Shown here one piece after another: positions 8,201 to 64,000 of a DNA stretch of 64,000 nucleotides. Under the pieces are notes generated by a model, which saw only the letters and a list, made by a program, of their open reading frames with translations, did not search any database and had not been told where the DNA came from. Positions within the stretch are counted from its first letter, which is position 1. The number at the start of each line of letters is the position of its first letter. This DNA is from Elusimicrobia bacterium GWA2_61_42. Its GTDB lineage: Bacteria; Elusimicrobiota; Elusimicrobia; Elusimicrobiales; UBA9959. Both the position numbers and the translations under genes were made by a program. The DNA lies in NCBI GenBank assembly GCA_001799615.1, contig MGTU01000009.1, positions 576 to 64,575 of the forward strand, given 5' to 3'.

Positions 8201-11200
8201 CCTGGACCGCGGGCATTCCGGCGCTGAGGTGGGCGGCCACCTGGCGCAGGGTGCGGATGGAGCCGAGCTGCTCGGGCGTAATGCGGGGCGCGGTGGGGAG
8301 TTTCTCCTGGAGCTCGGAGAGAATGGCCACGCGCTTGATGGAATCGATGCCGAGGTCGGACTCCATGTCCATATCCTGGTTGAGCGATTCGGCCGGGTAA
8401 CCGGTCTGGGACGAAACGATATCCAGCAGCACTTTCGCGACGTCGGGCCCGGCCGCGGCCGGGGCGGGCAGGGCGGGGGCCGGTGCCGGCTGGTACGCCG
8501 GGACGGCAGCGCGGGGGGCGGGGGCGGGCTGGTACGCGGGCCACGGCTGGGCCGGCGCGCCGCCGAAGAACTGCTGCTGCTGGTCCAGCAGGGTCTGGAA
8601 GGAGCGCTGGGCGGCTTCCTGTCCCTCGAGGAAACGGGTATGCAGGATAGCGGTCTGCTCCTGCATCTTCTGCAGGGCGGCCATGCTTTCCTGCGTAATG
8701 CGCAGCGCGTCGGAGGCGTAGGCCTGCAGGGCAGGCTGCATGGCCGGCGCTCCGGTGAGTGCCTGCGCGGCCGCCGGGGCGGCGACTACCCTGCGGAGCG
8801 CGGGCTTTTGACCGGCGGGGCGGGGGGAGCGGTAATTGGCGCCGGTAAGTTTAACGGCAAGCTTGGAAACCTTGTTCTCCAGCACGTCCTTCACGCCGGC
8901 TTCCCCGTTCTCCCAGGCGGCGAGGTCCAGTTTATAACCCAGCGCAGCCAGGCGGGCCAGCGCGCGCGCGGCGTCGGCTATGCCGGAGCGTTTGCCGGCG
9001 GAGGCGTCCAGGGCGAAAGCGGTATGCGGCTTGCCGGCCAGGATGGCCGAGGCCAGGCCGGTCAGGCGCGAGCCGGGGCCCACCTCAAGGAATACGCGCG
9101 TTCCTGCGGCGTACATCTTCTCTATCATCGCAGTGAACTCCACAGGCGAGGCCAGCTGCGACGCCAGGATCTCGCGCGCCTTGCCGGGGTTCTCCGGGTA
9201 GGCTTCGGCGGTCTTGTTGGCGTAAACGGCGGCAACCGGCTTGTCGAATTTGACTTTCTCCAGCGCGGCGGCGAACTCTTTCTGCGCGCCGGCCACCAGC
9301 GGGCTGTGGAAAGCGGCCGAGACCTGCAGCTGCGTGCTCTTGAGGCCGCGGCTGGCGAAGGCTGCGGCGGCCCGCTTTATTTCTTCGGTGCGCCCTGACA
9401 GTACGAACTGCGCCGGGGCGTTCTTGTTGGCGATAATGAGGTCGAGCTTTTCTTCCTTAACGACTTTTTCCACGTCGGCGAGGCCGGCCTGCACGGCCAG
9501 CATTCCCCCGCGGTCGCCGGAGCCGGCGGCCATCAGGGAGCCGCGCAGTTTGGACAGGGAGAACAGTGAGGCAGCGTCAAAGGCGCCGGCCGCGCAGAGC
9601 GCCGCCAGTTCGCCGTAGCTGTGCCCGGCGAAAGCGTCGGGCTTGAGGCCGAAGCCGGCCAGCACGCGCCAGGCGCCCAGGGCGGCCGCGCCCAGCGCAG
9701 GCTGCGCCACCGAGGTGTCGCGCAGGGCGTCGGCCTGGGCCTGCCTGCCCTCCGGGGTGAAGGCGGACCTGGGATAGATGAAGTCGGAGAGCGGCTTATC
9801 GCCGCCGAAGGCCTTGTCGGCCGCGGCCAGCGTATCCAGCGCGGCGGGGAAACGGCAGACTATATCGCGCTGCATGCCTGGGTACTGCGCGCCCTGGCCG
9901 GGGAACAGCACGGCCAGCTTTTCGGGCGCGCCGGAGGCGTAGAACACGCCGTCGGGAGTGGTCCAGGAGGCGGCCTGCTGCGAAGAGAGATTGGAGAGAG
10001 CGGAAGCTATGACTTTATTATAGTCGGAGTCCCGCTCCAGCACGAAGGTAAGGCGCGCGGCGCCGTCGGCCTTGTAGGCAGCGCGGGAGCGCATGGCTTT
10101 AACGCGCAGGTCGTTCCACTGCAGCCCTGCCCAGCCGGCCAGCTCGGTCTTCAGCGTTCCTGCGTCGGGCCCGGAGAGGGCCGCGATCTGCACTTCGCCG
10201 TCCCAGTCGGGCTGGGCCTTAACGGGGGAGTATTCCTCCAGCACGGCGTGGAAATTGGCGCCGCCGAACCCCAGGGCGCTCACGGCCGCCCGGCGGGGGT
10301 GGCTCTTCGGCAGCCAGGGGCGCAGTTCGGTGTTGAGGTAGAAGGGGGTAGTTCCGGCCGCCAGCTGTTTTACCGGCGCGGTTACTTTAATGGTGGGCGG
10401 GAGGGTTTTGTTGTAGAGCGAGAGGGCGGCCTTGATGAGGCCGGCCGAACCGGCGGCGGCCTTGGTGTGGCCGATCATGGATTTCACCGAGCCGAGGGCG
10501 CACCAGGTGCCTTCCTTCCTGCTGTCGCGATAAACTTCGGTGAGGGCGTCCACTTCTACGCCGTCGCCGACGGTGGTGCCGGTGCCGTGCGCTTCCGCCA
10601 TCTCCACCGTGTCGGGGGAAACGCCGGTGACGGAGTAGGCGTTCCTGAGCGCGCGGGCCTGACCTTCGGCGCTGGGGGCGTAGATGGCCTTGCCTTTGCC
10701 GTCGGAGGAGGAGCCCACGCCCTTGAGCACGGCGTAGATCCTGTCGCCGTCCTTAACGGCGTCGTCGAGGCGCTTCATCACCATCATGCCCAGGCCTTCG
10801 CCCAGGGCCGTGCCGTCGGCGGAAGCGTCGAAAGGCTTGGCGTTGCCGTCGGCGGACAGCGCCGGGGTCTTGCTGAAGCACATGTACATGAAAATATCGT
10901 TGAAACAGTCCACGCCGCCGGTGACCACCATGGTGGAGCGCCTGGTGGCCAGCTCCATGGAGGCCATGTGCACCGCGCCCAGCGAGGAGCCGCAGGCGGC
11001 GTCCACCACGCAGTTGGTGCCGCCCAGGTTGAAGCGGTTGGCCACGCGGCCGGAGACCACGTTGCCGAGCAGGCCGGGGAAGGAACTTTCCTGCCACGGG
11101 ACGTAGTCCTCCTGCATGCGTGAGATGATGGCTTCGGCGTCCGCGCCGGTTATGCCGAACTCGGAGAGGGCCTTGCGCCACTTGGGGTGGCCCAGGCGGG

Positions 11201-45395: not shown

Positions 45396-45467
45396 GCGCC
45401 CGTGGTGAAATGGATATCACAGGAGCCTCCGAAGCTTCTAGTGCAGGTTCGATTCCTGCCGGGCGCA
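45396..45467 (+). tRNA. tRNA-Arg (anticodon CCG)
   Basis: Hand-folded cloverleaf: acceptor GCGCCCG/CGGGCGC, D-stem GTGA/TCAC, anticodon stem GGAGC/GCTTC with loop CT-CCG-AA, T-arm GCAGG-TTCGATT-CCTGC, discriminator A. No encoded CCA. Confidence 0.85.
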
Positions 45468-49033: not shown

Positions 49034-49876
49034 ATGCTTCTTCGTCTCTGCATCGTGACCGCGCTTGCCGCTCTGTGCCTGACGGCCCAGGCGTCCGCCG
49101 CCAGGCGCCCGCGGGGCGACGAGCGCAACGTCTTCAAATCCTACTATACGGCCGAATATAACTCCTTCAAGAAACGCATCATGGCGGAATTCCGGGACGT
49201 CAAGGCCGGGCGCTTCAGCGAATTCCTAAAGCGCGGCACCCCCGGCGGAAAAGGTCCCGACCAGAAGGTCATCGCGCTTACCTTCGACGCCTGCGGCGGC
49301 CGCCACAGCGGCTACGACGCCGCCCTCATAGCCTACCTGCGCCGCGAGCAGATCCCGGCCACGCTGTTCGTCACCGGGATCTGGATAGAGAAGAACAAGG
49401 AGATCTTCGCCGGGCTGGCCAAGGACCCGCTGTTCGAGATAGAGAACCACGGCCTTATGCACCGGCTCTGCTCCACCGAGGGCAAGACCAAGTACGGCGT
49501 GCACGGCACCAGGGACCTGGGCGACGTTATAGACGAGATGGAACTGGGCGCCAGGAAAATAAGCGGGCTTACCGGCCGCCGCCCTTTGTTCTTCCGTTCC
49601 GCCACCGCTTATACCGACGAGCTTTCCATGAAGGTGGCCGGCCGCCTGGGCATGGAGGTGGTCAGCTACGACGTGCTCTCCGGCGACGCCATGCGCCAGT
49701 CCGCTAAAAAGATGCAGCGCAATATCCTGGCCGGCGCGCGCCACGGCGCCGTGGTCATAATGCATTTCAATCATCCCGAATGGCCCGGCCTCGCGGCCCT
49801 TGAGCTGACCGTCCCCGAGCTGCGCCGGAGGGGCTACAGCTTCGGCAAGCTGGAAGATTTTACCGTAAAGCCGTAA
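49034..49876 (+). CDS. Secreted polysaccharide deacetylase (CE4/NodB-homology family)
   Basis: The signal peptide is MLLRLCIVTALAALCLTAQASA. Contains LTFDACGG, ENHGLMH, FFRSATAY and MHFNHPE. Confidence 0.75.
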   Translation: MLLRLCIVTALAALCLTAQASAARRPRGDERNVFKSYYTAEYNSFKKRIMAEFRDVKAGRFSEFLKRGTPGGKGPDQKVIALTFDACGGRHSGYDAALIAYLRREQIPATLFVTGIWIEKNKEIFAGLAKDPLFEIENHGLMHRLCSTEGKTKYGVHGTRDLGDVIDEMELGARKISGLTGRRPLFFRSATAYTDELSMKVAGRLGMEVVSYDVLSGDAMRQSAKKMQRNILAGARHGAVVIMHFNHPEWPGLAALELTVPELRRRGYSFGKLEDFTVKP

Positions 49877-49901
49877 TTGGATCTGCCGGCATAAAAAGAA
49901 A

Positions 49902-49930
49902 GGCCCCTCGTTACCGGGGGGCTTTTCTTC
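49902..49930 (+). terminator. Intrinsic terminator after the deacetylase gene
   Basis: The stem ggcccc-tcgttacc-gggggc is followed by TTTTCTTC. Confidence 0.6.
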
Positions 49931-50003
49931 TGCTGGAACACCTGTTGGCGGCGCCCGGAATAAACGCGCGCGGAAGTTTTTTTAAGCTATTTTGGCCTGG
50001 GCC

Positions 50004-50032
50004 TTGACAAGTCAAGAGGCGTCTGTTATACT
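50004..50032 (+). promoter_or_regulatory. Near-consensus sigma70 promoter of structured RNA copy A
   Basis: TTGACA, then 17 nt, then TATACT, with an A/T-rich UP-like tract upstream. The -35 sits inside the palindrome CTTGAC-AA-GTCAAG. Confidence 0.75.
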
Positions 50033-50038
50033 TCAAAT

Positions 50039-50436
50039 GTAGCCTTGGTCTTTATACAGCGCGTCGGCAGTGTGAGCGGTTCGGTTGGGTTGGTTTCGGG
50101 GATCTGCCCCGGCCCCGGCGCGGTTTCCCCCGGTTCGCGGCCATGTTCCCGGCTCGGCGTTCTTGCGGCGTCGGCGCAGTTTCGGTGTTTGCGGCTCGCG
50201 TTCTACGGGGTGTTCCCCGGTCCGTCTCCCGCCCTTAGGGCGGCGCGGTTGCCGGGGTCCCGGTTCGGCGGTCCGCCCACAGCGGCGGCAACAGCTCCCG
50301 GGCGGGTGTTCCGGTCCCGGCGCTTTTCGGCGCTCTCGGTACTCCGGTTCGCTCCTCAGGCGGTGCGGTCTGCGGTCTATGCGGTCCGGCCTGTGTGCCA
50401 ATGAAGAGCCCCCGTTTCCCGGGGGCTCTCATTTTT
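50039..50436 (+). ncRNA. Unclassified ~400-nt A-depleted G/C/U-rich structured RNA, copy A (own promoter and terminator)
   Basis: The predicted TSS is about 7 nt after TATACT. Blocks conserved with copies B and C include gcgcggtttcccccggttcgcggcc and ggtccgtctccc...gcgcggttgccggggtcc.ggttcggcg. It ends in the terminator agagcccccg-tttcc-cgggggctct + ATTTTT (50405..50436). Confidence 0.7.
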
Positions 50437-50455
50437 ATAGGGGAATAGCGATGTT

Positions 50456-50833
50456 TTACTTTCTTTTGCGCTCAGGAGCCAGGGCGGCGCGTATTGTAAG
50501 GTAGGTGCGCTTCTGTATGCCTGACGATTTATTGCGGATTATCCCTATGATCCTGGTTTCCCAGGTGGTGGTTCGTACTTTCGGCGCCTTCTCTTCCAGC
50601 AGGTCCGCGGCTTTCACCATCAGGGCCGCTGACACCTTGGCCAGCGTGGCCAGGCTTATCTTTTTAGTGCCCCGCTCTATCTGGCCTATATAGCTGGGGT
50701 GCAGCCCGGCCCGGTCCCCCAATTCCTCCTGGGACCAGTTCAGGCGCTTGCGGTGACCCCGTACGGAGGTCCCAAGCGCCGCGTAGATGTTTATTTTCAT
50801 GATGGCGCTTATATTTTTGCAATGAACCGGCAC
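50456..50833 (-). CDS. XRE-family helix-turn-helix transcriptional regulator
   Basis: HTH region: LNWSQEELGDRAGLHPSYIGQIERGTKKISLATLAKVSAAL. The start is uncertain (GTG 50833 or ATG 50800). Confidence 0.8.
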   Translation of the reverse strand: MPVHCKNISAIMKINIYAALGTSVRGHRKRLNWSQEELGDRAGLHPSYIGQIERGTKKISLATLAKVSAALMVKAADLLEEKAPKVRTTTWETRIIGIIRNKSSGIQKRTYLTIRAALAPERKRK

Positions 50834-50878
50834 CTCTTTCTAGAGTCCACAAGGTTTAATATGACAAACCCTGTGGTG

Positions 50879-51066
50879 TTGACACCGCCAGGGATTATCT
50901 TATATGTTTAACCGAGGGAACGGGAGAATGCTTTTTTTTGCGCCCGCCCTGCCGGCCTTAACCGGCCATTTTTTTTCGAGAGTCCCCGCGGACCCCCCTG
51001 ACACATCCGCGGGGACTCTCCAATTTGCCGCGGTACCGGTAATAGGCCTTAGGGCCTATTTTTTTC
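50879..51066 (+). promoter_or_regulatory. Candidate promoter plus structured leader or small RNA upstream of the GH104 gene
   Basis: TTGACA (50879), then 16 nt, then TATATG. Next is a perfect 14-bp hairpin gagagtccccgcgg/ccgcggggactctc (50979..51021), then the terminator-like hairpin ataggcc-ttag-ggcctat + TTTTTT (51043..51066). This lies 45 nt before the ATG. Confidence 0.4.
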
Positions 51067-51110
51067 AGGGCCCAAGGGCACTTAAAGGCCGCGCCGCCGC
51101 CTGCCATAAT

Positions 51111-52037
51111 ATGGGAATGGAAAGGATGAACCGGGCCGCTTTAATTACCCTGCTTGCGATAGCGGCGCCCGTCTGCGCTTCGGCGCAGGCCTTTGACGAA
51201 CTGCTGGCGGCTTACGCCGGCGATAAAAATTTATCCCTGCCTTCCGTCCCCGCCGCCCCTGCCCTGGCGGAAGCAGAGCAGTACCTGCCCCCCGACAATA
51301 AAGAACCCGGTTTTGAATGGCCCTCGGAAAGGAAGGACAGGGCCGCCGAGGATTTTTTCTATATAGGCAATAACACCGCTTTCCTCAAGGCTTCCACCGA
51401 CCTTGCGGCCGATCTGGCCGAAGGCAGCGGCCGGTGCGCCCTCGCCCCTAATGCCCTTTATAAAACCCAGGCCAAACCCGGCTTCCAGGGCGAGCATATG
51501 ACCGTGACCCTGGCCGCGCCGCTGCCCGGCTGCGCCATCACCCGCGGCTATCTCTACATGACCGACGTTTCCTCCAGCTCGGCCGGCGGGGCCTGGGAGC
51601 TGCCCAGGACGGTGAGGGCCTTCATGGATACCCTGGCTTTCGCCGAGGGCACCAAGGCCCGTTATAATTATATTTTCACCTTCGTCACCTTCAACAGCTA
51701 CGCGGACCATCCCCGCAAAGCCATCTGCGCCGGCAAACTGTGCTCTACGGCCGCCGGGCGCTACCAGTTCCTTTCTAAAACCTGGGACGGCCTGGCCCCC
51801 GGCCTGGGCCTTACGGAGTTCACCCCGCCCAGCCAGGAAAAAGCGGCGCTTGAGATCATCCGCCGCGCCGGCGCCTACAACAGGGTGCTCAAATCCAACG
51901 TCTATGAGAATTTCACTTCCGCCCTCGCCAAACTGAACACCACCTGGGCCTCGCTGCCCGGCAGCCCTTACGGTCAGCCCACCCACCCTACCTCGGAACT
52001 GTGGAAAGTCTATAAAGCCGCCCTCGCCAAATATTGA
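51111..52037 (+). CDS. Secreted GH104-like (phage lambda R-type) lytic transglycosylase/muramidase with unknown N-terminal domain
   Basis: The signal peptide MNRAALITLLAIAAPVCASAQA follows the ATG cluster at 51111/51117/51126. The C-terminus is FAEGT...YADHP...STAAGRYQFLSKTWD. The ORF-track N-terminal 69 aa are treated as leader. Confidence 0.7.
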   Translation: MGMERMNRAALITLLAIAAPVCASAQAFDELLAAYAGDKNLSLPSVPAAPALAEAEQYLPPDNKEPGFEWPSERKDRAAEDFFYIGNNTAFLKASTDLAADLAEGSGRCALAPNALYKTQAKPGFQGEHMTVTLAAPLPGCAITRGYLYMTDVSSSSAGGAWELPRTVRAFMDTLAFAEGTKARYNYIFTFVTFNSYADHPRKAICAGKLCSTAAGRYQFLSKTWDGLAPGLGLTEFTPPSQEKAALEIIRRAGAYNRVLKSNVYENFTSALAKLNTTWASLPGSPYGQPTHPTSELWKVYKAALAKY

Positions 52038-52137: not shown

Positions 52138-55100
52138 ATGGGAAAGCCCGCGGCAACCGCAGCGCAGGTGTTGGAGGGGGATAAAACCCTTAAATTCCCG
52201 CACGCCATCCTGATCAGCGCCTCCGCCGGCTCCGGCAAAACCTATACCCTTACCCAGCGCTATGTGCAGTTCCTGCTTTCGGAGAAAGTTCCCAATAACG
52301 ACCTTTCCGGCATCCTCGCCGTCACTTTCACCAATAACGCCGCCAAGGAAATGAAAGCCCGCATCCTGGCGTGGCTGAAGGACCTGGCGCTGAATAAGAA
52401 CTGCGAAAAAATGGACGAGACCCTGGCGCTGGTCTCCCTTTCCCGGGAAGAGGTCCATAAGCGCGCCGGGGACCTGGTGGAGCGCGTCATCGGCAACTAC
52501 TCGGATTTTCACATCCAGACCATAGACAGCTTCCTGGCCAGGGTGATGGCGGCCTCGGTGGACGAGCTGAAACTGCCGCTGAAGGCGGAGATCACCATGG
52601 CCTACGACGTACTCATAGACCTGGCGCTGTACGCCATGTTCGCCCGCATAGGCAAGGCGGACCTGCCCGCCGAGGTCGTGGATAAATTCCTGGCCGTGCT
52701 GCCCAAGACCGGCTCCTACCCGTGGAACCCCGCCCAGCGCGTAAAGGACAATTTCAACAGCTTCCTGACGCAGGAGGGCAAGACCGCGGGCGTGCTGGCG
52801 GCGGTGGCCGGGGACCACGAGGCTTTGCTCAAGGCCAAATTCGGCGAGACGCTGAAGTTCTGCGCCGGCCTGGTAAAACATTACGGCGACAAAGGGCTGT
52901 TCAAAGAGAAGTGCCTGGCCGCGCTGGAAGCGAAGAACCTCACCGACTTCCTGGCGGCCTATAAGTTCGACTACGGCATTTTCAGCGGCGTTAAAAAGAA
53001 AAGCCTGCCGGCCGGCTGGGAAAAAGACCTCGCAAGCCTGAACGAACTGGTGATAGCCCTGACCGAGCTGAACGCCGCGGCTTATTACCACCCTTACGTG
53101 GGCATCTATGACCGCTTCAAGGCCGAGCTGGAGCGCGTCAAGCGCGGCAAGACCGACGTCATTCACATCAACGACATCGCCAAGAAGCTTTCCGCCTATA
53201 TCAACGCCGAGAACGTGCCCGAGGTCTACCTGAAGCTGGGCGAACGCATCTCCCACTTCCTCATCGACGAGTTCCAGGACACCAACCGCCTGCAGTGGGA
53301 CGTCCTCCGCCCGCTGGTGGAGGAAGCCGTCTCCAAGAACGGCTCGCTGTTCGTGGTGGGGGACATCAAGCAGGCCATCTACATGTTCCGCAACGCGGAC
53401 TACAAGATCATGCGCGACCTGCTGGACAAGGCCGAGGGCAAAAAGGCCGAGGCGGCCAACCTTTCGCTGGACTCCCTGGGCGGCGAATTGAAGTACGTGA
53501 ACCTGCCCGTCAACTACCGCTCCGACGGCGAGGTGCTGAACTACGTGAACGCCCTCTTTAAAGAAAAGCTCAAGCGCGTGCCCGAGCTGATAGGCCAGGA
53601 CCTGACCGAGCTTACCGCTTATTCCCAGGCCGCGCGGCCCGACAGGCTGAAGCTCGGCTATGTGAAGACCGGCGTGCTGGAGCTTGAGGACCTCTCCGAG
53701 GCCGAGCCGCAGAAAGACTGGCTGCTGAAAGCCGTGAATTCCGCGCGCGAGCGCTACCCGCTGGGCGAGATCGCCATCCTGGTAGCCAAGAACAAGCGTA
53801 TTGAGCCGGTGGTGGAGTGGCTGACCGGCGCCGGCATCCCCGTGGCCTCGCTGAGCTCCCTGGACATACGCAAGCGCAAGGTAGTGGCCGAGCTTATCGC
53901 CTGCCTGAAGTTCCTGGAAACCCCGTCGGATGACCTTTCCTTCTCCGCCTTCATAACGGGGGATATCTTCACCAGGCTTACCGGCCTGCCGCGCGAAGAA
54001 CTGACGGAGTTCGTCTTTAATTCCCGCTTAACGGCCCCGGGCGCCCTTCTTTACGCCGCGTTCCGCAACCACGCCAGGTACAAAGAATACTGGGACAAAT
54101 ACCTCGACGAAGCCTTCCGCAAGGTCGGCTACCTGCCGCTGTACGAGCTGGTCTCGGTGGTCTGCGACGATTTCAGGCTGTTCGCCAATTTCCCTTCAGA
54201 GCAGGCCTTCCTGGCCCGGTTCCTGGACGCGGTCAGCGCGCTGGAAGCCGGCGGCGTGACCAGCCCCCGCTCTTTCATAGAGTACGCCTCCGGGGCCGAC
54301 GAGGACAAGGCCGCGCTGTTCTCCATCGCCCTGCCGGAATACCTGGACGCCGTGCGCGTGATGACCTTTCATAAATCCAAGGGCCTGGGCTTCTCGGTGG
54401 TGATCAACCTGATGTACGACGAGCGCGGCCAGAGCGACCCGATGTATTTCGAGGAGAAGGACGGCGAGATCCACGTCTACCACATCACCAAGGCGGCGGC
54501 CGAGCAGTCGGTGAAGCTCCGGCCGGTGTACGAGGGCCGCAGGACGGACGCCAACGTGCAGGACCTGAACGTGCTCTACGTGATCTCCACCCGCGCCCGC
54601 CACGAACTTTATAACCTGGTGATAAAAAAAGCCCGCAAGACCGCGGCGCCGGAGCCCAGGCTGCAGGACCTCTTCGCGCCGTTCGAGGCCGGCACCCCCG
54701 CGGAGCGCAAGCCGGAGGCCCGCCAGGCCTCCGAACCGGTGGAGGTGCCCGGCGCGGCCGCCCGTCCCGAGCAGCGCTTCGACGCGCTGAAGCCCACTTA
54801 CGGCAGCTCCTTCGACACCGCCGAGGGCGAGCTGGCGCACGCTATCCTGGCCCGCGTCACCGGGCCGTCCGACCCGGAGCGGGAACTGCCCGCCCTTTTC
54901 GACGAGCTGAGCCCCGGCTATCCTTTCAAGTTCGACAAGGTCCGGCTGGTAAAGACGCTCCTGGCTTTCCTCAGCAACTCCGAGGCCGCGAATTTCTTCG
55001 CCGACGGCCCCGGCCGGCAGGTCCTGGCCGAGGCCGAATTTATAGACAGGAACGGCGCGCTGTTCCGCATGGACCGCGTGATAATAGAAAAAGACGCCGT

Positions 55101-55263
55101 GACCGTGGTGGACTTCAAGACCGGGCGCGAGAACATGAAAAAATACGCGCCCCAGATGAAGAATTACCTGGCGATAATTTCCGAAGTGTACGGCAGGCCC
55201 GCCAAGGGCGCGCTGGCCTACGTGGACCTGCAAAAGATAGTAGAGGTTAAACCGGGAGACTGA
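52138..55263 (+). CDS. UvrD/Rep-type superfamily-1 helicase fused to a C-terminal PD-(D/E)XK (RecB-family) nuclease, AddA-like
   Basis: Walker A SASAGSGKTYTL. Also LIDEFQDTN, VGDIKQAIYMFRNAD and TFHKSKGLGF. The nuclease motif is RMDRVII...VVDFKTG...QMKNY. Confidence 0.8.
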   Translation: MGKPAATAAQVLEGDKTLKFPHAILISASAGSGKTYTLTQRYVQFLLSEKVPNNDLSGILAVTFTNNAAKEMKARILAWLKDLALNKNCEKMDETLALVSLSREEVHKRAGDLVERVIGNYSDFHIQTIDSFLARVMAASVDELKLPLKAEITMAYDVLIDLALYAMFARIGKADLPAEVVDKFLAVLPKTGSYPWNPAQRVKDNFNSFLTQEGKTAGVLAAVAGDHEALLKAKFGETLKFCAGLVKHYGDKGLFKEKCLAALEAKNLTDFLAAYKFDYGIFSGVKKKSLPAGWEKDLASLNELVIALTELNAAAYYHPYVGIYDRFKAELERVKRGKTDVIHINDIAKKLSAYINAENVPEVYLKLGERISHFLIDEFQDTNRLQWDVLRPLVEEAVSKNGSLFVVGDIKQAIYMFRNADYKIMRDLLDKAEGKKAEAANLSLDSLGGELKYVNLPVNYRSDGEVLNYVNALFKEKLKRVPELIGQDLTELTAYSQAARPDRLKLGYVKTGVLELEDLSEAEPQKDWLLKAVNSARERYPLGEIAILVAKNKRIEPVVEWLTGAGIPVASLSSLDIRKRKVVAELIACLKFLETPSDDLSFSAFITGDIFTRLTGLPREELTEFVFNSRLTAPGALLYAAFRNHARYKEYWDKYLDEAFRKVGYLPLYELVSVVCDDFRLFANFPSEQAFLARFLDAVSALEAGGVTSPRSFIEYASGADEDKAALFSIALPEYLDAVRVMTFHKSKGLGFSVVINLMYDERGQSDPMYFEEKDGEIHVYHITKAAAEQSVKLRPVYEGRRTDANVQDLNVLYVISTRARHELYNLVIKKARKTAAPEPRLQDLFAPFEAGTPAERKPEARQASEPVEVPGAAARPEQRFDALKPTYGSSFDTAEGELAHAILARVTGPSDPERELPALFDELSPGYPFKFDKVRLVKTLLAFLSNSEAANFFADGPGRQVLAEAEFIDRNGALFRMDRVIIEKDAVTVVDFKTGRENMKKYAPQMKNYLAIISEVYGRPAKGALAYVDLQKIVEVKPGD

Positions 55264-59008: not shown

Positions 59009-59691
59009 GATCCAGGTTCTCTATCTGGGCTATCGTCGCCGCCAACCTGCTGCCGCTGGTCCTGGTCGCGCTCGGCTACTGGGGCGTAACCGAGATCCTG
59101 GCGCTTTACTGGATCGAGACCGCCATCGTCGGATTTTTTACCGTCCTGAAGGTCTTTTTCGCCTCGGCGCCGGTGCCGTATCACAAAACCGTCACTTTTG
59201 AAATGCTCAAGTCGGCTCCGCATCTGAAAACGCTGCCGCTGCTGGCCGGGGACCTGGGTTTTATCGGGAAGATCCTGATCTCCCTCTTTTTCGCTTTTCC
59301 TTTCATTATGTTCATGGCGCTGAACGGACTTATTCTTTACCTGGCGCTGGTCCTTGTTTATCCCGGCGCCAGCGTGCCGCCGCTCTTAAGCCTGAAATGG
59401 GGGCTGCTGTCGCTGTTCCTGGGTCACGGCGCCGCTTTCGCGGCGGATTATCTCGCCAGCGGTGAATTTCGCAGGACCAGGCCCGGCGACTGCGTGAACG
59501 AGCCTTTTCACAGGCTGGCTATAATGCAGCTTACCCTGGCCGCCGGGGCCGGCCTCTCCGGCTCGTTCGGCGGCATGCTGTATATAATGAGCGTTTTCGT
59601 CGTGGCCAAGCTCGCCATCGAACTGCGCCCGCCGGGCGGCTACATCGGCGCCGCGGCAGAAACGCCAAAAACCGACGCGTCAGCACGTTGA
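59005..59691 (+). CDS. Polytopic membrane protein, unknown function
   Basis: 228 aa with about 6 hydrophobic helices. It overlaps the GNAT stop by 4 nt. Confidence 0.55.
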   Translation: MRSRFSIWAIVAANLLPLVLVALGYWGVTEILALYWIETAIVGFFTVLKVFFASAPVPYHKTVTFEMLKSAPHLKTLPLLAGDLGFIGKILISLFFAFPFIMFMALNGLILYLALVLVYPGASVPPLLSLKWGLLSLFLGHGAAFAADYLASGEFRRTRPGDCVNEPFHRLAIMQLTLAAGAGLSGSFGGMLYIMSVFVVAKLAIELRPPGGYIGAAAETPKTDASAR

Positions 59692-59717
59692 CGCTTTCTC
59701 CTGCTATACTATATAAG

Positions 59718-61592
59718 ATGACTCCCGAGGAAATCCTTAAAAAACGCTGGGGCTACGGCGCCTTCAAACCTCTGCAGAAAGAGGCTATAGAGGCCGCGCT
59801 GGCCGGGAGGGACTGTTTGGTGGTGCTGCCTACGGGCGGCGGCAAAAGCCTTTGCTACCAGCTGCCGGCGGCCATGGGAAAGGGCCTGGTGCTGGTGGTG
59901 TCCCCGTTGATAGCCCTGATGGACGACCAGGTGGCCGCCGCGCGCGAAGCCGGCCTGGCCGCCGACGCGCTGCATTCCAATTTGAAGGCCGGCCCCAAGC
60001 GCGAGGCTTACCAGAACCTCTCCAGCGGCGTTACTGAACTGCTTTATGTCAGCCCGGAGCGCCTGCTCTCCGGCGACCTTTACCAGCTGATAGCTCCCCG
60101 GCTTATACTGGCCGCGGTAGACGAGGCGCACTGCGTGTCCCATTGGGGCCACGAGTTCCGCCCGGAGTACCGCCGCCTGACGGAGGCGCTGGACCTTTTT
60201 CCCAGGGCGGCCCGCATGGCGCTTACGGCCACGGCTACGCCCGTGGTGCAGGAGGATATCCGCGCGCAGCTGGCGCTGCGCTCGCCCGAGATCCTGATCG
60301 GCCACCCTGACCGCCCCAACCTTGTTTACCGCGCTTTCCCGCGCCGGGACCAGTCCAGGCAGGTGCTGGAGGTGGTGAAGCGCCACCCCGGCGAGGGCGG
60401 CATAGTTTACGCCCAGACCCGCAAGGACGTCACGCGCCTGGCCGCGAACCTTAAGAAGGAAGGGGTTTCCTGCGCGCCTTACCACGCGGGGCTCAACGCC
60501 GAGGAGCGCCGCCAGGCGCAGGACGATTTCGTGAACGAGCGGCTGGACGTGATAGTGGCCACCATCGCCTTCGGCATGGGCATAGACCGCTCCAACGTGC
60601 GCTACGTGGTGCACGCCAACACGCCGCGCTCGGTGGAGCATTACCAGCAGGAGAGCGGCCGCGCCGGGCGCGACGGCGAGCCCGCCGACTGCACGCTGCT
60701 GTTCTCGGCGGCGGACCTGGCCATGCACCGCTGGATGGCCAAGAAAGACGTCACGCTTTCCGCTGAGCGCGAGCGCGCGCTGGAGAAGCAGCTGCGCGAC
60801 ATCGGGCGCTTCGCGGTGGCGCCGGTGTGCCGGCACGGGCAACTGGCCGAGCATTTCAGCGCGCCTTACCCGGTGGCGCCGCGCGGGGAAGGGGGCTGCG
60901 GGGCCTGCGACGTCTGCCTGGGGGAGACCAAGGGGCTGTCGGACGCGGAGGCGCTGCTGACGGCTAAAAAAGTTTTGAGCGCGGCGTGGCGGGCCGAGGG
61001 GCGCTACGGCACGGGCTACGTGGTGAATCTGCTGCTGGGGCGGCCTAACGACCGCATGACGGGCAACGGCCACGACAAGCTTCAGGTGTTCGGCCTGCTG
61101 AAAGAGGCGGGCGAGCCGGCGGTGAGGTCTTGGATAGACCAGCTTATCGTGCAGGATTTCCTGGAGGTGACGGAGGAGAGCGAATACCCGCTGCTGCGGA
61201 TCACGGCGGCGGGCCGCGCGCTGTGCCAGGACAAAGGCGCGGTGCGGCTGGGGCTGCCGGTGCCGCCCAAGGCGGGCAAGAAGAAGTCCAAGGCGCTGAA
61301 GAAGGCGGGCGCTGATTTCTCCGCTTCGGACGAAGCGCTCTTCGAGCGGCTGCGCGCTATCCGGCGGGCGCTGGCGGACAAGGCGGGCATCCCGCCGTAC
61401 GTTATCTGCCAGGACGCGACGCTGCTGGAAATTTCTTCGGTGAAGCCGCGGACCCCGGAGGCGCTGCTGGAGATCAAGGGGATGGGGGAGAAGCGGGTGC
61501 AGAAATACGGCAGGATCTTCCTGGACGCCGTCGCCGGGCGCGCGCCGGAAATCCCTGCGCCGTCCGCGGTATCGGATGAGGCGGAGTTCTGA
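59718..61592 (+). CDS. recQ: ATP-dependent DNA helicase RecQ (helicase + RQC + HRDC)
   Basis: From ATG 59718: MTPEEILKKRWGYGAFKPLQ. Also has LPTGGGKSLCYQLPA, VDEAHCVSHWGHEFRPEY, and the HRDC region LFERLRAIRRALADKAGIPPYVI...IKGMGEKRVQKYG. The ORF-track start at 59688 is a TTG overlapping the upstream gene. Confidence 0.9.
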   Translation: MTPEEILKKRWGYGAFKPLQKEAIEAALAGRDCLVVLPTGGGKSLCYQLPAAMGKGLVLVVSPLIALMDDQVAAAREAGLAADALHSNLKAGPKREAYQNLSSGVTELLYVSPERLLSGDLYQLIAPRLILAAVDEAHCVSHWGHEFRPEYRRLTEALDLFPRAARMALTATATPVVQEDIRAQLALRSPEILIGHPDRPNLVYRAFPRRDQSRQVLEVVKRHPGEGGIVYAQTRKDVTRLAANLKKEGVSCAPYHAGLNAEERRQAQDDFVNERLDVIVATIAFGMGIDRSNVRYVVHANTPRSVEHYQQESGRAGRDGEPADCTLLFSAADLAMHRWMAKKDVTLSAERERALEKQLRDIGRFAVAPVCRHGQLAEHFSAPYPVAPRGEGGCGACDVCLGETKGLSDAEALLTAKKVLSAAWRAEGRYGTGYVVNLLLGRPNDRMTGNGHDKLQVFGLLKEAGEPAVRSWIDQLIVQDFLEVTEESEYPLLRITAAGRALCQDKGAVRLGLPVPPKAGKKKSKALKKAGADFSASDEALFERLRAIRRALADKAGIPPYVICQDATLLEISSVKPRTPEALLEIKGMGEKRVQKYGRIFLDAVAGRAPEIPAPSAVSDEAEF

Positions 61593-61617: not shown

Positions 61618-62661
61618 ATGACGAACGACAAGAAAGATCCGGGTACTACGCTGCTGGTGCTGCTGGCCGTTTTCCTTTTCCTGTTCCTGGGCATGATCTG
61701 GCCTTACCTGATAGCGCTGGTGATGGGCCTGCTGCTGGCCATCCTCAGCCGGCCGCTTTATAACGCGCTGGTAAAGAGACGCCTGGGGCCGCAGCTGGCG
61801 GCGGGCTTGTCCATGGCGGTGATCCTGCTGGCTATCATAGGGCCGCTGGCGGTTTTTGCGGTCACGGCGGTCAAGCAGGCCGTGGCCCTGGCGGCTTACC
61901 TGGCCGACGAGCGCGGCGCGGAATTCGTGAGGGCGGCGGTGGCCGCGGTTACGGCGCTGAAGCCGGTGCAATGGGTTATAGACAGCCCGGCTGACCTGCA
62001 GGCCAAGGGGCTGGAGTTCGCCCAGAGCGCGGGCGGCGCGCTGAGCCGCATGATCCTGGTGCAGGCTGCCGCCCTGCCGGACCTGCTGCTTAAGGTGGTT
62101 ATTTCCCTGCTTACCTGGTTCTTCCTGCTTTTCGAGGGGGAAACTTTTCTTAACTGGTTTATGCGCAGGGTGCCTATGGAGGCCGGCCTGCGCGGCCGCC
62201 TGATCTCTTCTTTCAGGGCTACGGCCGCTTCCACGGTGTGGGCGACTTCGGCGGCCGCGGCGGCGCAGGCGCTGGTGGTGATGGCGGGTTTCTGGGCGCT
62301 GGGGGTGCCGGCTATTTTCCTGGCCGGCGGGGCTACGTTCATCTTCGCCTGGATACCCATCCTGGGCAGCCTGCCGGTCTGCCTGGCGGGGGCGGTTTAT
62401 CTGTATTTCAACGGCGCGCTTTTTATGCTGGCGCTGATGGGCCTGGTGGCGGTGGTGGCGGGGCTTATGGATAACGTGGTGCGGCCTATCGTGATGAAGG
62501 GGCACGGGGATATGCACCCGCTGCTGGCGCTCATTTCAATTTTCGCCGGGATACGGATGTTCGGGGTGCTGGGCGTGATCTTCGGGCCGATCGTGGCCGC
62601 CATGCTGCTGGCTTTGCTGAACTCCTGGCAGCTGCCGGCGGCCGGAGCCGGGAATAATTGA
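61618..62661 (+). CDS. AI-2E family transporter (PerM/YhhT-like permease)
   Basis: 347 aa, polytopic, with the C-terminal motif ...VRPIVMKGHGDMHPLLALISIFAGIRMFGVLGVIFGP. Confidence 0.8.
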   Translation: MTNDKKDPGTTLLVLLAVFLFLFLGMIWPYLIALVMGLLLAILSRPLYNALVKRRLGPQLAAGLSMAVILLAIIGPLAVFAVTAVKQAVALAAYLADERGAEFVRAAVAAVTALKPVQWVIDSPADLQAKGLEFAQSAGGALSRMILVQAAALPDLLLKVVISLLTWFFLLFEGETFLNWFMRRVPMEAGLRGRLISSFRATAASTVWATSAAAAAQALVVMAGFWALGVPAIFLAGGATFIFAWIPILGSLPVCLAGAVYLYFNGALFMLALMGLVAVVAGLMDNVVRPIVMKGHGDMHPLLALISIFAGIRMFGVLGVIFGPIVAAMLLALLNSWQLPAAGAGNN

Positions 62662-62734
62662 TCCCGGCGGGCCGCGCCGCCCGACGTGGAAAGGCGCCGG
62701 GGATATTAATTTTAAATTTATTTTTATTTACCCC

Positions 62735-62763
62735 TTGACAAGTCAAGGGGTTGCTGTTATACT
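62735..62763 (+). promoter_or_regulatory. Near-consensus sigma70 promoter of structured RNA copy B
   Basis: TTGACA, then 17 nt, then TATACT. It is preceded by the A/T-rich tract attaattttaaatttatttttattta. Confidence 0.75.
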
Positions 62764-62769
62764 CGGTAT

Positions 62770-63200
62770 GTAGTCCTGATCTTTTAAATGCGTCGGCGGT
62801 GTAGTCGAGGTGCTCTCGGTGGTGTGCGGTCGAGCTGATCTCGGCGTTGAGGTTTTCCGGTCCGCGGGTCCTGCCCGCCCCGACGCGGTTTTTCCCGGTT
62901 CGCGGCCTGTGTTCTCCGGTCTGGCGCTTTAGCGGCGCCGCTTGGTCCGCTGTTCGAGGCTTGCGTTCTCCGGGTTTTCCCTGGTCCGTCTCCCGCCCTT
63001 TCGGGCGGCGCGGTTGCCGGGGTCCTGGTTCGGCGCTCCGTCTTCTGGCGGTCTGCCTCCGGGTGGGTGTTCCGGCCCTCGGTCTCCGGCGCTAATGCGC
63101 CTCCTGGTTCCCGGTTCGCTCCTTACGTGGTCCGTAGTTCCCAAGTACCCTGGCCTGTGCGCCAATTGAAGAGCCCCCGTTCCCGGGGGCTCTCAATTTT
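62770..63200 (+). ncRNA. Unclassified ~430-nt A-depleted structured RNA, copy B
   Basis: The 5' end (atgtagtcctgatcttttaaatgcgtcggcgg) is identical to copy C. It shares internal conserved blocks and the 3' motif cctggcctgtgcgccaattgaagagcccccg with the other copies. The terminator is agagcccccg-ttcc-cgggggctct + AATTTT. Confidence 0.7.
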
Positions 63201-63258
63201 ATATAGTGCGCGTTTAGCTTTGGGTGGTGGGCCGCGAGAAGCCCAGTCGGAGCCTGCC

Positions 63259-63372
63259 GAGGGTATGGGCCCGGCGGGCACCGGGTCGGCCACACCGTGG
63301 CCGCCCTCCTCACTCGGCCTCGTCGCTATGCAAGCCTCGGCCTCCGTGAGGGCCCGCCGAACCCATACCCTC
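63259..63372. other. About 114-nt imperfect palindrome predicted to fold as a multi-stem junction, in the spacer between RNA copies B and C
   Basis: The outer 12-bp stem is cgagggtatggg/cccataccctcg. After a 2x2 internal loop comes the 8-bp stem cggcgggc/gcccgccg. Inner hairpins are cggccac-acc-gtggccg and cctcac...gtgagg. Confidence 0.4.
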
Positions 63373-63562
63373 GTCAGTCCCCTCCGTGATGGTGGCGTAA
63401 TAACAGTTTTGCCGGGTGATTGCCGGAGATCTTCGGGAGGGTGAAAGGGAGGAATTTTGAAAATAAAAAAATGCGGGGGAAGGGCTGCCGGAAAAAAATA
63501 GGCGGCGAACGGGATTTAGCTCGACGTGAAAATAAGAAAATAAAATATTTTAAGATTACCCC

Positions 63563-63591
63563 TTGACAAGTCAAGGAGTTGCTGTTATACT
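63563..63591 (+). promoter_or_regulatory. Near-consensus sigma70 promoter of structured RNA copy C
   Basis: TTGACA, then 17 nt, then TATACT. It is preceded by aaaataagaaaataaaatattttaagatta. Confidence 0.75.
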
Positions 63592-63597
63592 CGGTAT

Positions 63598-64000
63598 GTA
63601 GTCCTGATCTTTTAAATGCGTCGGCGGTCTCGGTGTGCGGTCGAGCTGATCTCGGTGGTTGCGGGTTTCGGGCTTTGCCCCGGCCCCCGGCGCGGTTTCC
63701 CCCGGTTCGCGGCCAGTGTTTTTTGGCTTGGCGTCTTGCGGCGTCGGCGTTCGAGGTTGGTTGCTGGCGCGCGTTCTACGGGGTGTTCCCTGGTCCGTCT
63801 CCCCCACCTAAGTGGGGCGCGGTTGCCGGGGTCCTGGTTCGGCGGCCCGCCTTTCGCGGCGGCAACCTGCTCCCGGGTGGGTGTTCCGGTTCTCGGTTCG
63901 GCGCTAACGCGCTGCCTGGTTCCCCGGTCTGCCCCTTACGCGGTCTCAGTCGCGGTTTACAAGTACCCTGGCCTGTGCGCCAATTGAAGAGCCCCCGTCC
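63598..64000 (+). ncRNA. Unclassified A-depleted structured RNA, copy C (3' terminator cut by the window edge)
   Basis: It is collinear with copies A and B. The window ends inside the terminator 5' arm (gaagagcccccg). Confidence 0.65.

Follow-up and report, generated by a model that had tools for sequence, protein, structure and literature searches.

A 64,000-nt stretch of DNA from Elusimicrobia bacterium GWA2_61_42 (contig MGTU01000009.1, positions 576 to 64,575 of the forward strand; hereafter called the window) harbors three related units of approximately 430 nt each, designated copies A, B and C, which were seen by direct reading of positions 49700-50900 and 62400-64000. Since each copy possesses its own promoter and its own terminator, the three are independent genes, and there is little doubt that they are paralogous members of a family of structured non-coding RNA (ncRNA) genes. 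The transcript, which contains very little adenine, forms a series of G+C-rich hairpins (P1 to P6), as supported by covariation. An earlier, sequence-only reading of this DNA had pointed to two hairpins; the complete transcription units, the position of these hairpins at the tips of longer helices and the scarcity of adenine go beyond it. The best explanation, which we favor with slightly better than even confidence, is an undescribed family of structured ncRNAs that would be abundant, stable, bound by protein and active in trans.

Every unit begins with CCTTGACAAGTCAAG, followed by six variable bases and CTGTTATACT, and its 3′ end consists of GAAGAGCCCCCG-loop-CGGGGGCTCTC and a T run. The 15-mer CCTTGACAAGTCAAG and the 19-mer GGCGCGGTTGCCGGGGTCC occur exactly three times each in the window, compared to about 0.1-0.2 expected occurrences, and a covariance model of helices P3 to P5 (model R1) also detected exactly three copies. 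At every copy, a consensus scan identified a sigma-70 promoter in which 11 of 12 positions agree with the consensus, the spacer measures 17 nt and a TG extension is present. The promoters, transcripts and terminators are as follows.

Copy A unit, 50004-50436, plus strand: promoter to terminator.
Copy A promoter, 50004-50032, plus strand: TTGACA, 17-nt spacer, TATACT and TG extension, with the palindrome CTTGACAAGTCAAG over the -35 hexamer.
Copy A RNA, 50038-50436, plus strand: about 398 nt, start predicted from the -10 hexamer.
Copy A terminator, 50405-50429, plus strand: 10-bp, G+C-rich stem and U run.
Copy B unit, 62735-63200, plus strand: promoter to terminator.
Copy B promoter, 62735-62763, plus strand: same sequence type as in copy A (positions 11118-11146 of locus L001).
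Copy B terminator, 63164-63200, plus strand: AAUUG-A-AGAGCCCCCG-UUCC-CGGGGGCUCU-CAAUU and U run, with a 10-bp G+C-rich stem called at 63170-63193.
Copy C unit, 63563 to beyond the window end, plus strand: promoter; the terminator lies on the parent contig.
Copy C promoter, 63563-63591, plus strand (positions 11946-11974 of L001).
Copy C RNA, 63597-64000, plus strand: cut by the window end; core at 63784-63938, scored 124.5 bits by model R1.

The promoter of copy B is preceded by an AT-rich stretch (62703-62730) resembling an UP element. On the parent contig (ENA ERZ28564302 scaffold_81, 233 kb), copy C runs on for about 16 nt past the window up to the same terminator, without a fourth copy after it. 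Hence, a promoter and a terminator on the same strand enclose a non-coding stretch, as in a stand-alone ncRNA gene. A perfect palindrome, CTTGAC-AA-GTCAAG, surrounds the -35 hexamer of each copy (window positions 50002-50016, 62733-62748 and 63561-63576) and was invariant across all homologues retrieved via the RNA body. As contacts of sigma-70 alone are insufficient to account for this conservation, a dimeric regulator may use the palindrome as its operator.

The intrinsic terminator at the end of each unit, together with a same-strand gene that follows within 20-120 nt in some homologues, would also suit a riboswitch or attenuator, i.e., a leader acting in cis on the downstream gene through its terminator. 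This is very improbable, since the next element after copy A is a convergent helix-turn-helix gene and that after copy B is the copy C promoter. Overall, the downstream gene shared the strand of the RNA 22 times and lay on the opposite strand 17 times, its families were varied, and the long, invariant terminator stem has no evident competing antiterminator.

A consensus fold was obtained with RNAalifold from 17 full-length sequences. From 5′ to 3′, it comprises an unpaired tail, helix P1 (GCGYCGG with CCGRCGC) around a 5′ domain of variable length, P2, P3, P4, P5, a linker which often contains tandem GCGGU motifs, P6 and the terminator. P3 is a long hairpin composed of three parts; its tip is hairpin 1 of the sequence-only reading, while hairpin 2 forms the tip of P5. 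The elements were located in the window as follows.

Copy B 5′ tail, 62769-62789, plus strand: UGUAGUCCUGAUCUUUUAAAU, conserved in the family, unpaired in the consensus fold, boxA-like.
Copy B 5′ domain, 62790-62886, plus strand: closed by P1, in which GCGUCGG (62790-62796) pairs with CCGACGC (62880-62886).
Copy B helix P2, 62893-62975, plus strand: UCCCG-GUU-CGCG ... UGCG-UUCUC-CGGGU around a variable hairpin.
Copy B helix P3, 62979-63022, plus strand: long hairpin CCCUGGUCCGU-CUC-[CCGCCC-UUUC-GGGCGG]-C-GCGG-UU-GCCGGGG; the tip at 62993-63008 is hairpin 1.
Copy B helix P4, 63024-63063, plus strand: CCUGG-UUC-GGC ... GCC-UCCGGG.
Copy B helix P5, 63065-63122, plus strand: GGGUG-UU-CCGG ... CCGG-UUCG-CUCC; the tip GGCGC-UAAU-GCGCC at 63088-63101 is hairpin 2.
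Copy B hairpin P6, 63151-63164, plus strand: small, UGGC-CUGUGC-GCCA.
Copy A core, 50211-50358, plus strand: scored 117.5 bits by model R1.
Copy A hairpin 1, 50229-50243, plus strand: ccgccc-tta-gggcgg.
Copy A GCGGU motifs, about 50360-50392, plus strand: four motifs.
Copy C hairpin 1 (63802-63817) and hairpin 2 (63900-63913), plus strand.

The 5′ domain, which in copy B contains two small CGAG-loop-CUCG hairpins, showed the greatest length variation among homologues.

According to the sequence-only reading, hairpin 1 follows immediately after GGTCCGTCTCC and exhibits compensatory changes. Its location was as described in copies A and C (ccccac-ctaa-gtgggg in the latter); in copy B the given sequence, ccgccc-tttc-gggcgg, is right but was placed at 63003-63018, 10 nt too far to the right of its actual position. 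Between copies B and C, the third pair changes from G-C to C-G and the fifth from C-G to A-U, and pairing is kept both times. The statement that hairpin 2 behaves similarly does not apply to these two copies: ggcgc-taat-gcgcc in B and ggcgc-taac-gcgcu in C differ in the loop and on one side of the outer pair (G-C to G-U), which is conservation rather than compensation. Across the homologues the statement is valid, as all four pairs of hairpin 2 change on both sides. The two copies also have identical ends, as noticed before, comprising the promoter with the first ca. 32 transcribed nt and the last ca. 39 nt ahead of the terminator loop.

By themselves, the two compensatory changes that separate B from C would provide weak evidence for selection on RNA structure; the covariation among homologues provides the confirmation. 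A MAFFT alignment of the 17 full-length sequences, which was not fitted to any structure and thus served as a separate check, revealed standard pairs in 97% of the pair cells, compared to 41-55% (about 47%) when the partners were slid. Both sides had changed in 13 pairs, and the observed values were not reached in any of 500 shuffles. In addition, 43 matches of model R1, 40 of them distinct, were aligned to the model. Among the 40 distinct sequences, 95% of the cells were paired (42-51% with slid partners) and 25 of the 43 pairs changed on both sides, including five of the six pairs of hairpin 1; again, 0 of 500 shuffles were as high. Since such a fitted alignment leans towards the structure of the model, the unfitted one is important as an independent check. 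The proposed test by structure-aware alignment with added homologues (RNAalifold, covariance model) thus left pairing well above the controls. Hairpin 1 occurs as CCGCCC/GGGCGG, CCCCAC/GUGGGG, CCGCCU/AGGCGG and in other forms, P1 as GCGCCGG/CCGGCGC, GCGUCGG/CCGACGC, GAGCCUG/CAGGCUC, GCUCCGG/CCGGAGC and GCGCCGU/ACGGCGC. The pairs of P6 were invariant in the 17-sequence set; its forms GGCC/GGCC and CUGGC/GCCAG were read from the alignment of 44 sequences. The terminator stem continues into the 3′ tail (AAUUG with CAAUU), where one homologue (L118) shows a change from G-C to A-U. A scan for further covarying pairs gave no convincing signal for additional long-range or pseudoknot pairs, because the Y/G-rich columns yield many spurious compatible pairs.

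The possibility that the copies encode a protein or are elements acting at the DNA level (repetitive extragenic palindromes, miniature inverted-repeat transposable elements, a Chi-like cluster near recQ and addA, or an assembly duplication) is most remote. Long open reading frames do traverse the copies on both strands; they are a by-product of the scarcity of adenine, since every stop codon needs an A on the RNA strand or a T on the other. The reading frame is not preserved among homologues: gap runs with remainders 1, 2 and 0 after division by three numbered 377, 91 and 81 in the core alignment, so that 468 of 549 were not multiples of three, and 1089, 584 and 270 in the full alignment. A coding function was rejected for this reason, in agreement with the sequence-only reading. 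As regards the DNA-level variants, recQ and an addA-like gene are located nearby and GCGGT resembles the core of Gram-positive Chi sites. However, in the rest of the window GCGGT occurs 124 and 120 times on the two strands (118 expected), i.e., without enrichment or skew, and Chi-like sites tied to recQ and the addA-like gene were therefore dismissed. The compensatory changes keep pairing on one strand and include G-U pairs, which are meaningless in DNA, and every unit comes with a promoter and a terminator of its own on a single strand, as is not expected of the DNA repeat that had already been argued against. Finally, the B-C tandem was also found on a contig from a second sample (L002). Its presence in an independent assembly means that the tandem is not an assembly artefact.

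Homologues were sought in two ways. A genome scan with an exact 20-mer of the body, restricted to one genome per species, returned 20 loci, of which six carry the RNA (five Elusimicrobia metagenome-assembled genomes, MAGs, and one MAG labelled 'bacterium'); the other 14 were chance matches. A metagenome scan with the promoter word yielded at least 119 loci. Approximately 50 among the matches listed carry the RNA, and the remainder were unrelated AT-rich matches. After removal of duplicates, 44 full-length RNAs of 248-451 nt were kept. As both searches required exact words, the sample is biased towards close relatives, the neighboring RecQ proteins being 77-86% identical to that of the window. 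The range found so far is a narrow clade of Elusimicrobia, all named homologues being Elusimicrobia MAGs. Two pattern scans of viral contigs were negative, with no match of the terminator pattern and only chance matches of the core pattern in coding DNA (best model score 17 bits); a phage-borne RNA was therefore rejected.

Each paralogue is closer to a copy of another genome than to those of its own genome. Copy A is 76% identical to L014 and 62-64% to copies B and C, copy C 81% to L039 and 72% to copy B; the nearest relatives are L014 and L035 for A, L039 for C, and L081 and L012 for B. Hence, the duplications are old, as the sequence-only reading had supposed, and three old paralogues have been retained within 14 kb. 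The A and the B/C types also reside in different conserved gene contexts, the A type after a polysaccharide deacetylase gene and the B/C type after recQ, in the window with an AI-2E transporter gene in between. Among the homologous loci, L117:448-1042 (595 nt) contains two RNA bodies which are seemingly fused head to tail, with one promoter and no terminator between them. In L118, a DUF3800-V RNA (RF02964, 56 bits, above the gathering score) was detected at positions 1505-1601, about 1 kb from the new RNA.

RNA genes lie adjacent to recQ, the deacetylase gene or a gene for a 377-aa protein at seven loci each. A functional link to any of these neighbors was not accepted, because the genomes are close relatives and the gene order may be inherited. 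The 377-aa protein (window 50904-52037) carries a signal peptide, matches neither Pfam nor NCBIfam and does not look like an RNA partner; in our reading, its C-terminus (AAGRYQF...TW) appears lysozyme- or lytic transglycosylase-like. In six other loci, an orthologue of this protein is encoded immediately upstream of the short form of the RNA. Between them, the three RNA genes enclose a 12-kb block with genes for an AddA/RecB-like helicase-nuclease (52138-55263) and RecQ (59688-61592), and a PD-(D/E)XK protein encoded 7 kb downstream (L001 19114-21044) may be AddB-like, judging from its Pfam match alone. The clustering with recombination genes is conserved in the relatives and may likewise reflect inherited gene order. 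The spacer between copies B and C contains a long imperfect inverted repeat (63243-63390; CGAGGGTATGGGCCCGGCGGGC ... GCCCGCCGAACCCATACCCTCG), whose predicted fold over 186 nt is a branched hairpin of -105 kcal/mol (z = -4.5 versus shuffles). This repeat was present only in this genome among all fetched loci and might represent a further small RNA or an element of the REP type.

The base composition of the RNA is unusual. In all 44 sequences, adenine accounts for 4-10% and uracil for 20-30% of the nucleotides, while the rest of the window contains 18.4% A and 18.1% T. Adenine is nearly excluded from the loops as well as from the helices. As the excess of U over A far exceeds that of G over C, the unpaired positions must be rich in pyrimidines, which is the opposite of most structured RNAs.

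Three elements are nearly invariant within the family: the promoter including its palindrome, the 5′ tail (UGYAGUCYUGNUCUYUU) and the stem AGAGCCCCCG/CGGGGGCUCU, which was found in nearly all of the 44 RNAs. The promoter word was identical in all eight sequences retrieved with the body pattern, even though this query did not contain it. A stem that merely terminates transcription could covary freely; its invariance suggests that the terminator stem is under sequence-specific recognition. The body, on the other hand, shows rapid compensatory substitution and the gain or loss of whole hairpins. While RecQ orthologues are 77-86% identical, the RNAs share 55-80% identity, and the RNA downstream of recQ is only 315 nt long in L030, compared to 431 and 420 nt here, with RecQ proteins that are 85% identical. 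Short motifs are reiterated in the RNA. GCGGU occurs 306 times (72 expected), often in tandem runs whose number varies among relatives, and UGNUCUY 76 times (15 expected), recurring two to four times per RNA. Modules of the type CCGG-UUC-G are found in P2, P4 and P5. In the short-form homologues L101, L096, L076, L134 and L064, the 5′ domain is expanded by low-complexity sequence consisting of G and U only, with GCGGU and GUGU runs of 60-80 nt. These expansions are bracketed by GGGCCC ... GGGCCC and differ greatly in length between close relatives.

The core of the 5′ tail, G-N-U-C-U-Y-U-U-A-A-A (GAUCUUUUAAA in copy B), matches boxA at 9-10 of 11 positions and occurs at a fixed position shortly after the start in nearly all members. 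The consensus used, GYUCUUUAANA, was derived for gamma-proteobacteria (PMC5725501) and may not be that of the host phylum. BoxA recruits NusB-NusE and nucleates a Rho-resistant complex that helps the nascent RNA to fold (PMC8632103). Judging from the sequence, the tail may play a boxA-like role, to which we assign somewhat less than an even chance. With the nut-like (boxA) leader of ribosomal RNA (rRNA) operons, the new RNA shares a strong promoter, a U-rich motif within about 10-20 nt and a long, structured, untranslated transcript. Unlike that leader, it is not followed by rRNA, and no rRNA genes were detected within the window or the fetched homologue loci; the second position of the motif is usually A instead of a pyrimidine and the eighth is usually U, and binding of NusB/NusE is putative.

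It is conceivable, if unlikely, that the RNA derives from or mimics an rRNA operon leader, with a strong promoter, boxA, boxC-like G/U tracts and A/U-rich ends resembling the pre-16S junction, and acts on Nus factors, rRNA-processing nucleases or ribosome assembly, either as a decoy or as a helper. The boxA-like tail, the AT-rich stretch upstream of the -35 hexamer and the two to four UGNUCUY motifs per RNA would fit. The segment AAUUGAAGAG ahead of the terminator (63164-63198, and in homologues) presumably equals the first bases of Escherichia coli 16S rRNA and, along with the tail CUUUUAAAU, would presumably recreate the E. coli pre-16S 5′ junction. However, a simpler account of AAUUGAAGAG is that it pairs and covaries with the terminator tail CUCUCAAUU, so that the resemblance to 16S rRNA is probably coincidental. 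Pairing of the tail with AAUUGAAGAG was rejected since the change in this segment in L118 is compensated in the 3′ strand of the terminator and not in the tail. Moreover, the Rfam models for small and large subunit rRNA gave no match even at E ≤10.

The tail also raises the question of a base-pairing regulatory RNA, in which the unpaired segment UGUAGUCCUGAUCUUUU would be the seed for ribosome-binding regions of mRNAs (its complement contains AGGA) and the body would mainly provide stability. Trans-acting small RNAs typically have their seed at the 5′ end and finish in a terminator hairpin followed by a U tail. The tail is the most conserved single-stranded segment and is predicted to be more often unpaired than the body (0.61 versus 0.32). 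Yet a covarying body of 350 nt far exceeds the needs of a seed carrier, no site complementary to the tail was detected in the 64-kb window apart from the RNA genes themselves, and three copies with presumably high expression fit titration better than catalytic pairing. A pairing function is thus improbable.

A trans-acting, protein-binding RNA is the explanation that we prefer. High output would follow from the quality of the promoter, the AT-rich upstream stretch and the presence of three copies, and a long life from the base-paired 3′ end and the scarcity of A/U-rich single strands. The boxA-like tail may recruit NusB/NusE and thereby enable the polymerase to complete the untranslated transcript without termination by Rho, as on rRNA operons. 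The mature RNA would then probably act as a protein scaffold or decoy in trans, pairing with mRNAs being less likely. Likely contact points would be the bulged CCGG-UUC-G helices, the GCGGU runs and the UGNUCUY motifs. A scaffold or decoy is preferred because of the large covarying body, the many reiterated modules with drifting copy number and the lack of a visible mRNA-target logic; as a specific mode of action it is nonetheless put forward tentatively, with well under even confidence.

Several points weigh against this explanation. The start site, the abundance and the stability are all deduced from features of the sequence. No partner protein was found among the neighbors, which differ between the paralogues and none of which resembles an RNA-binding protein. 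Part of the GCGGU excess stems from conserved helix strands which are counted in related sequences; in partition-function folding, the GCGGU motifs were predicted to be paired about as often as the remaining body, so that they are not clearly exposed and the idea of GCGGU runs as exposed single strands is unsupported. The hairpin loops vary (UUUC, CUAA, UAAU and similar) and are therefore not recognition elements. As to the tail, the resemblance to boxA was noticed post hoc, and the window contains 75 boxA matches with two mismatches, corresponding to a chance of about 1% per 25-nt stretch, which makes a lone match weak.

Another speculation concerns a self-assembling multimeric RNA particle, driven by the self-complementary CCGG, GGCC, GCGC and GGGCCC tracts. 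Multimeric assembly is reported for GOLLD, ROOL and OLE (PMC12286853). Nearly all helices of the new RNA consist of CCCGG/CCGGG-type strands, which are able to pair within or between molecules. On the other hand, A-minor and GNRA loop-receptor contacts are largely unavailable on account of the scarce adenine, the loops are variable and convincing long-range or pseudoknot covariation is lacking, so that such a particle is as unlikely as the rRNA leader mimic.

A bolder reading, which we regard as rather improbable, is a very abundant, adenine-depleted RNA class transcribed in the manner of rRNA (strong promoter, boxA, Nus factors). Through its conserved ends and its repeated boxA-like and GCGGU elements, it would titrate Nus factors, S1/S10 or rRNA-processing enzymes and thereby adjust ribosome biogenesis or transcription antitermination. 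The alternative within this reading is an RNA-only particle with almost no adenine. If true, the former would be a regulatory RNA of an undescribed kind, while the latter would challenge the need for A-minor contacts in large RNA architectures. If the tail is a working boxA, antitermination by Nus factors would extend to a stand-alone ncRNA. The depletion of adenine is a clear and testable hint at what the RNA has to bind or to avoid.

It is very likely that the RNA does not belong to a family of Rfam 15. A search of the whole window at the gathering threshold recognized tRNA only; this tRNA-Arg (CCG) at 45396-45467 was the sole RNA in the window identified by Rfam or ARAGORN. At E ≤10, only scattered weak matches were obtained for copies A, B and C, all of them lying beyond the RNA or at its margin, and among 17 homologue loci no family was found repeatedly on the RNA. 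No description was found in the literature on Elusimicrobia ncRNAs and adenine-poor RNAs, though a name outside the searched libraries could exist. The RNA is new as a family; as a general kind, it is a stand-alone structured bacterial ncRNA. It comes from a poorly studied phylum, and few large structured bacterial RNA classes are left undiscovered; OLE, GOLLD, ROOL and the raiA motif each opened new biology.

Compared to known RNAs, the new family resembles CsrB/RsmZ, which sequester CsrA, and CrcZ, which sequesters Hfq/Crc, in its length of about 350-450 nt, the stand-alone gene bounded by a strong promoter and an intrinsic terminator, and the frequent occurrence of paralogous copies. It also has in common with them a string of hairpins and short reiterated motifs whose number varies between relatives. 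What separates it from these RNAs is that its motifs GCGGU, CCGGUUCG and UGNUCUY contain neither GGA nor an A-rich element and do not reside in hairpin loops, and that no Rfam match was obtained. With 4-10% adenine and without GGA among the enriched k-mers, it lacks the exposed GGA motifs of a CsrB/RsmZ-type sponge, and this identity was rejected. The RNA polymerase-binding 6S RNA and the actinobacterial Ms1 RNA are similar in the gene design of an abundant RNA, in sequence drift with maintained structure and in sometimes being multicopy, and Ms1, with about 300 nt, is also G+C-rich. By contrast, the new RNA is twice as long as 6S RNA and forms a row of local hairpins, without a terminal stem between the 5′ and 3′ ends or a central bubble resembling an open promoter. 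Its unpaired 5′ tail, the serial local hairpins, the length of 248-451 nt compared to about 180 nt and the lack of a match to RF00013 led to the rejection of 6S RNA. With OLE, GOLLD, ROOL and the raiA motif, it shares the features of a long ncRNA with a covariation-supported structure and a restricted phylogenetic range. These RNAs possess many conserved unpaired nucleotides and A-rich tertiary motifs, whereas the RNA described here matches none of them in sequence or structure, is depleted of adenine, has variable loops and is conserved at its two ends.

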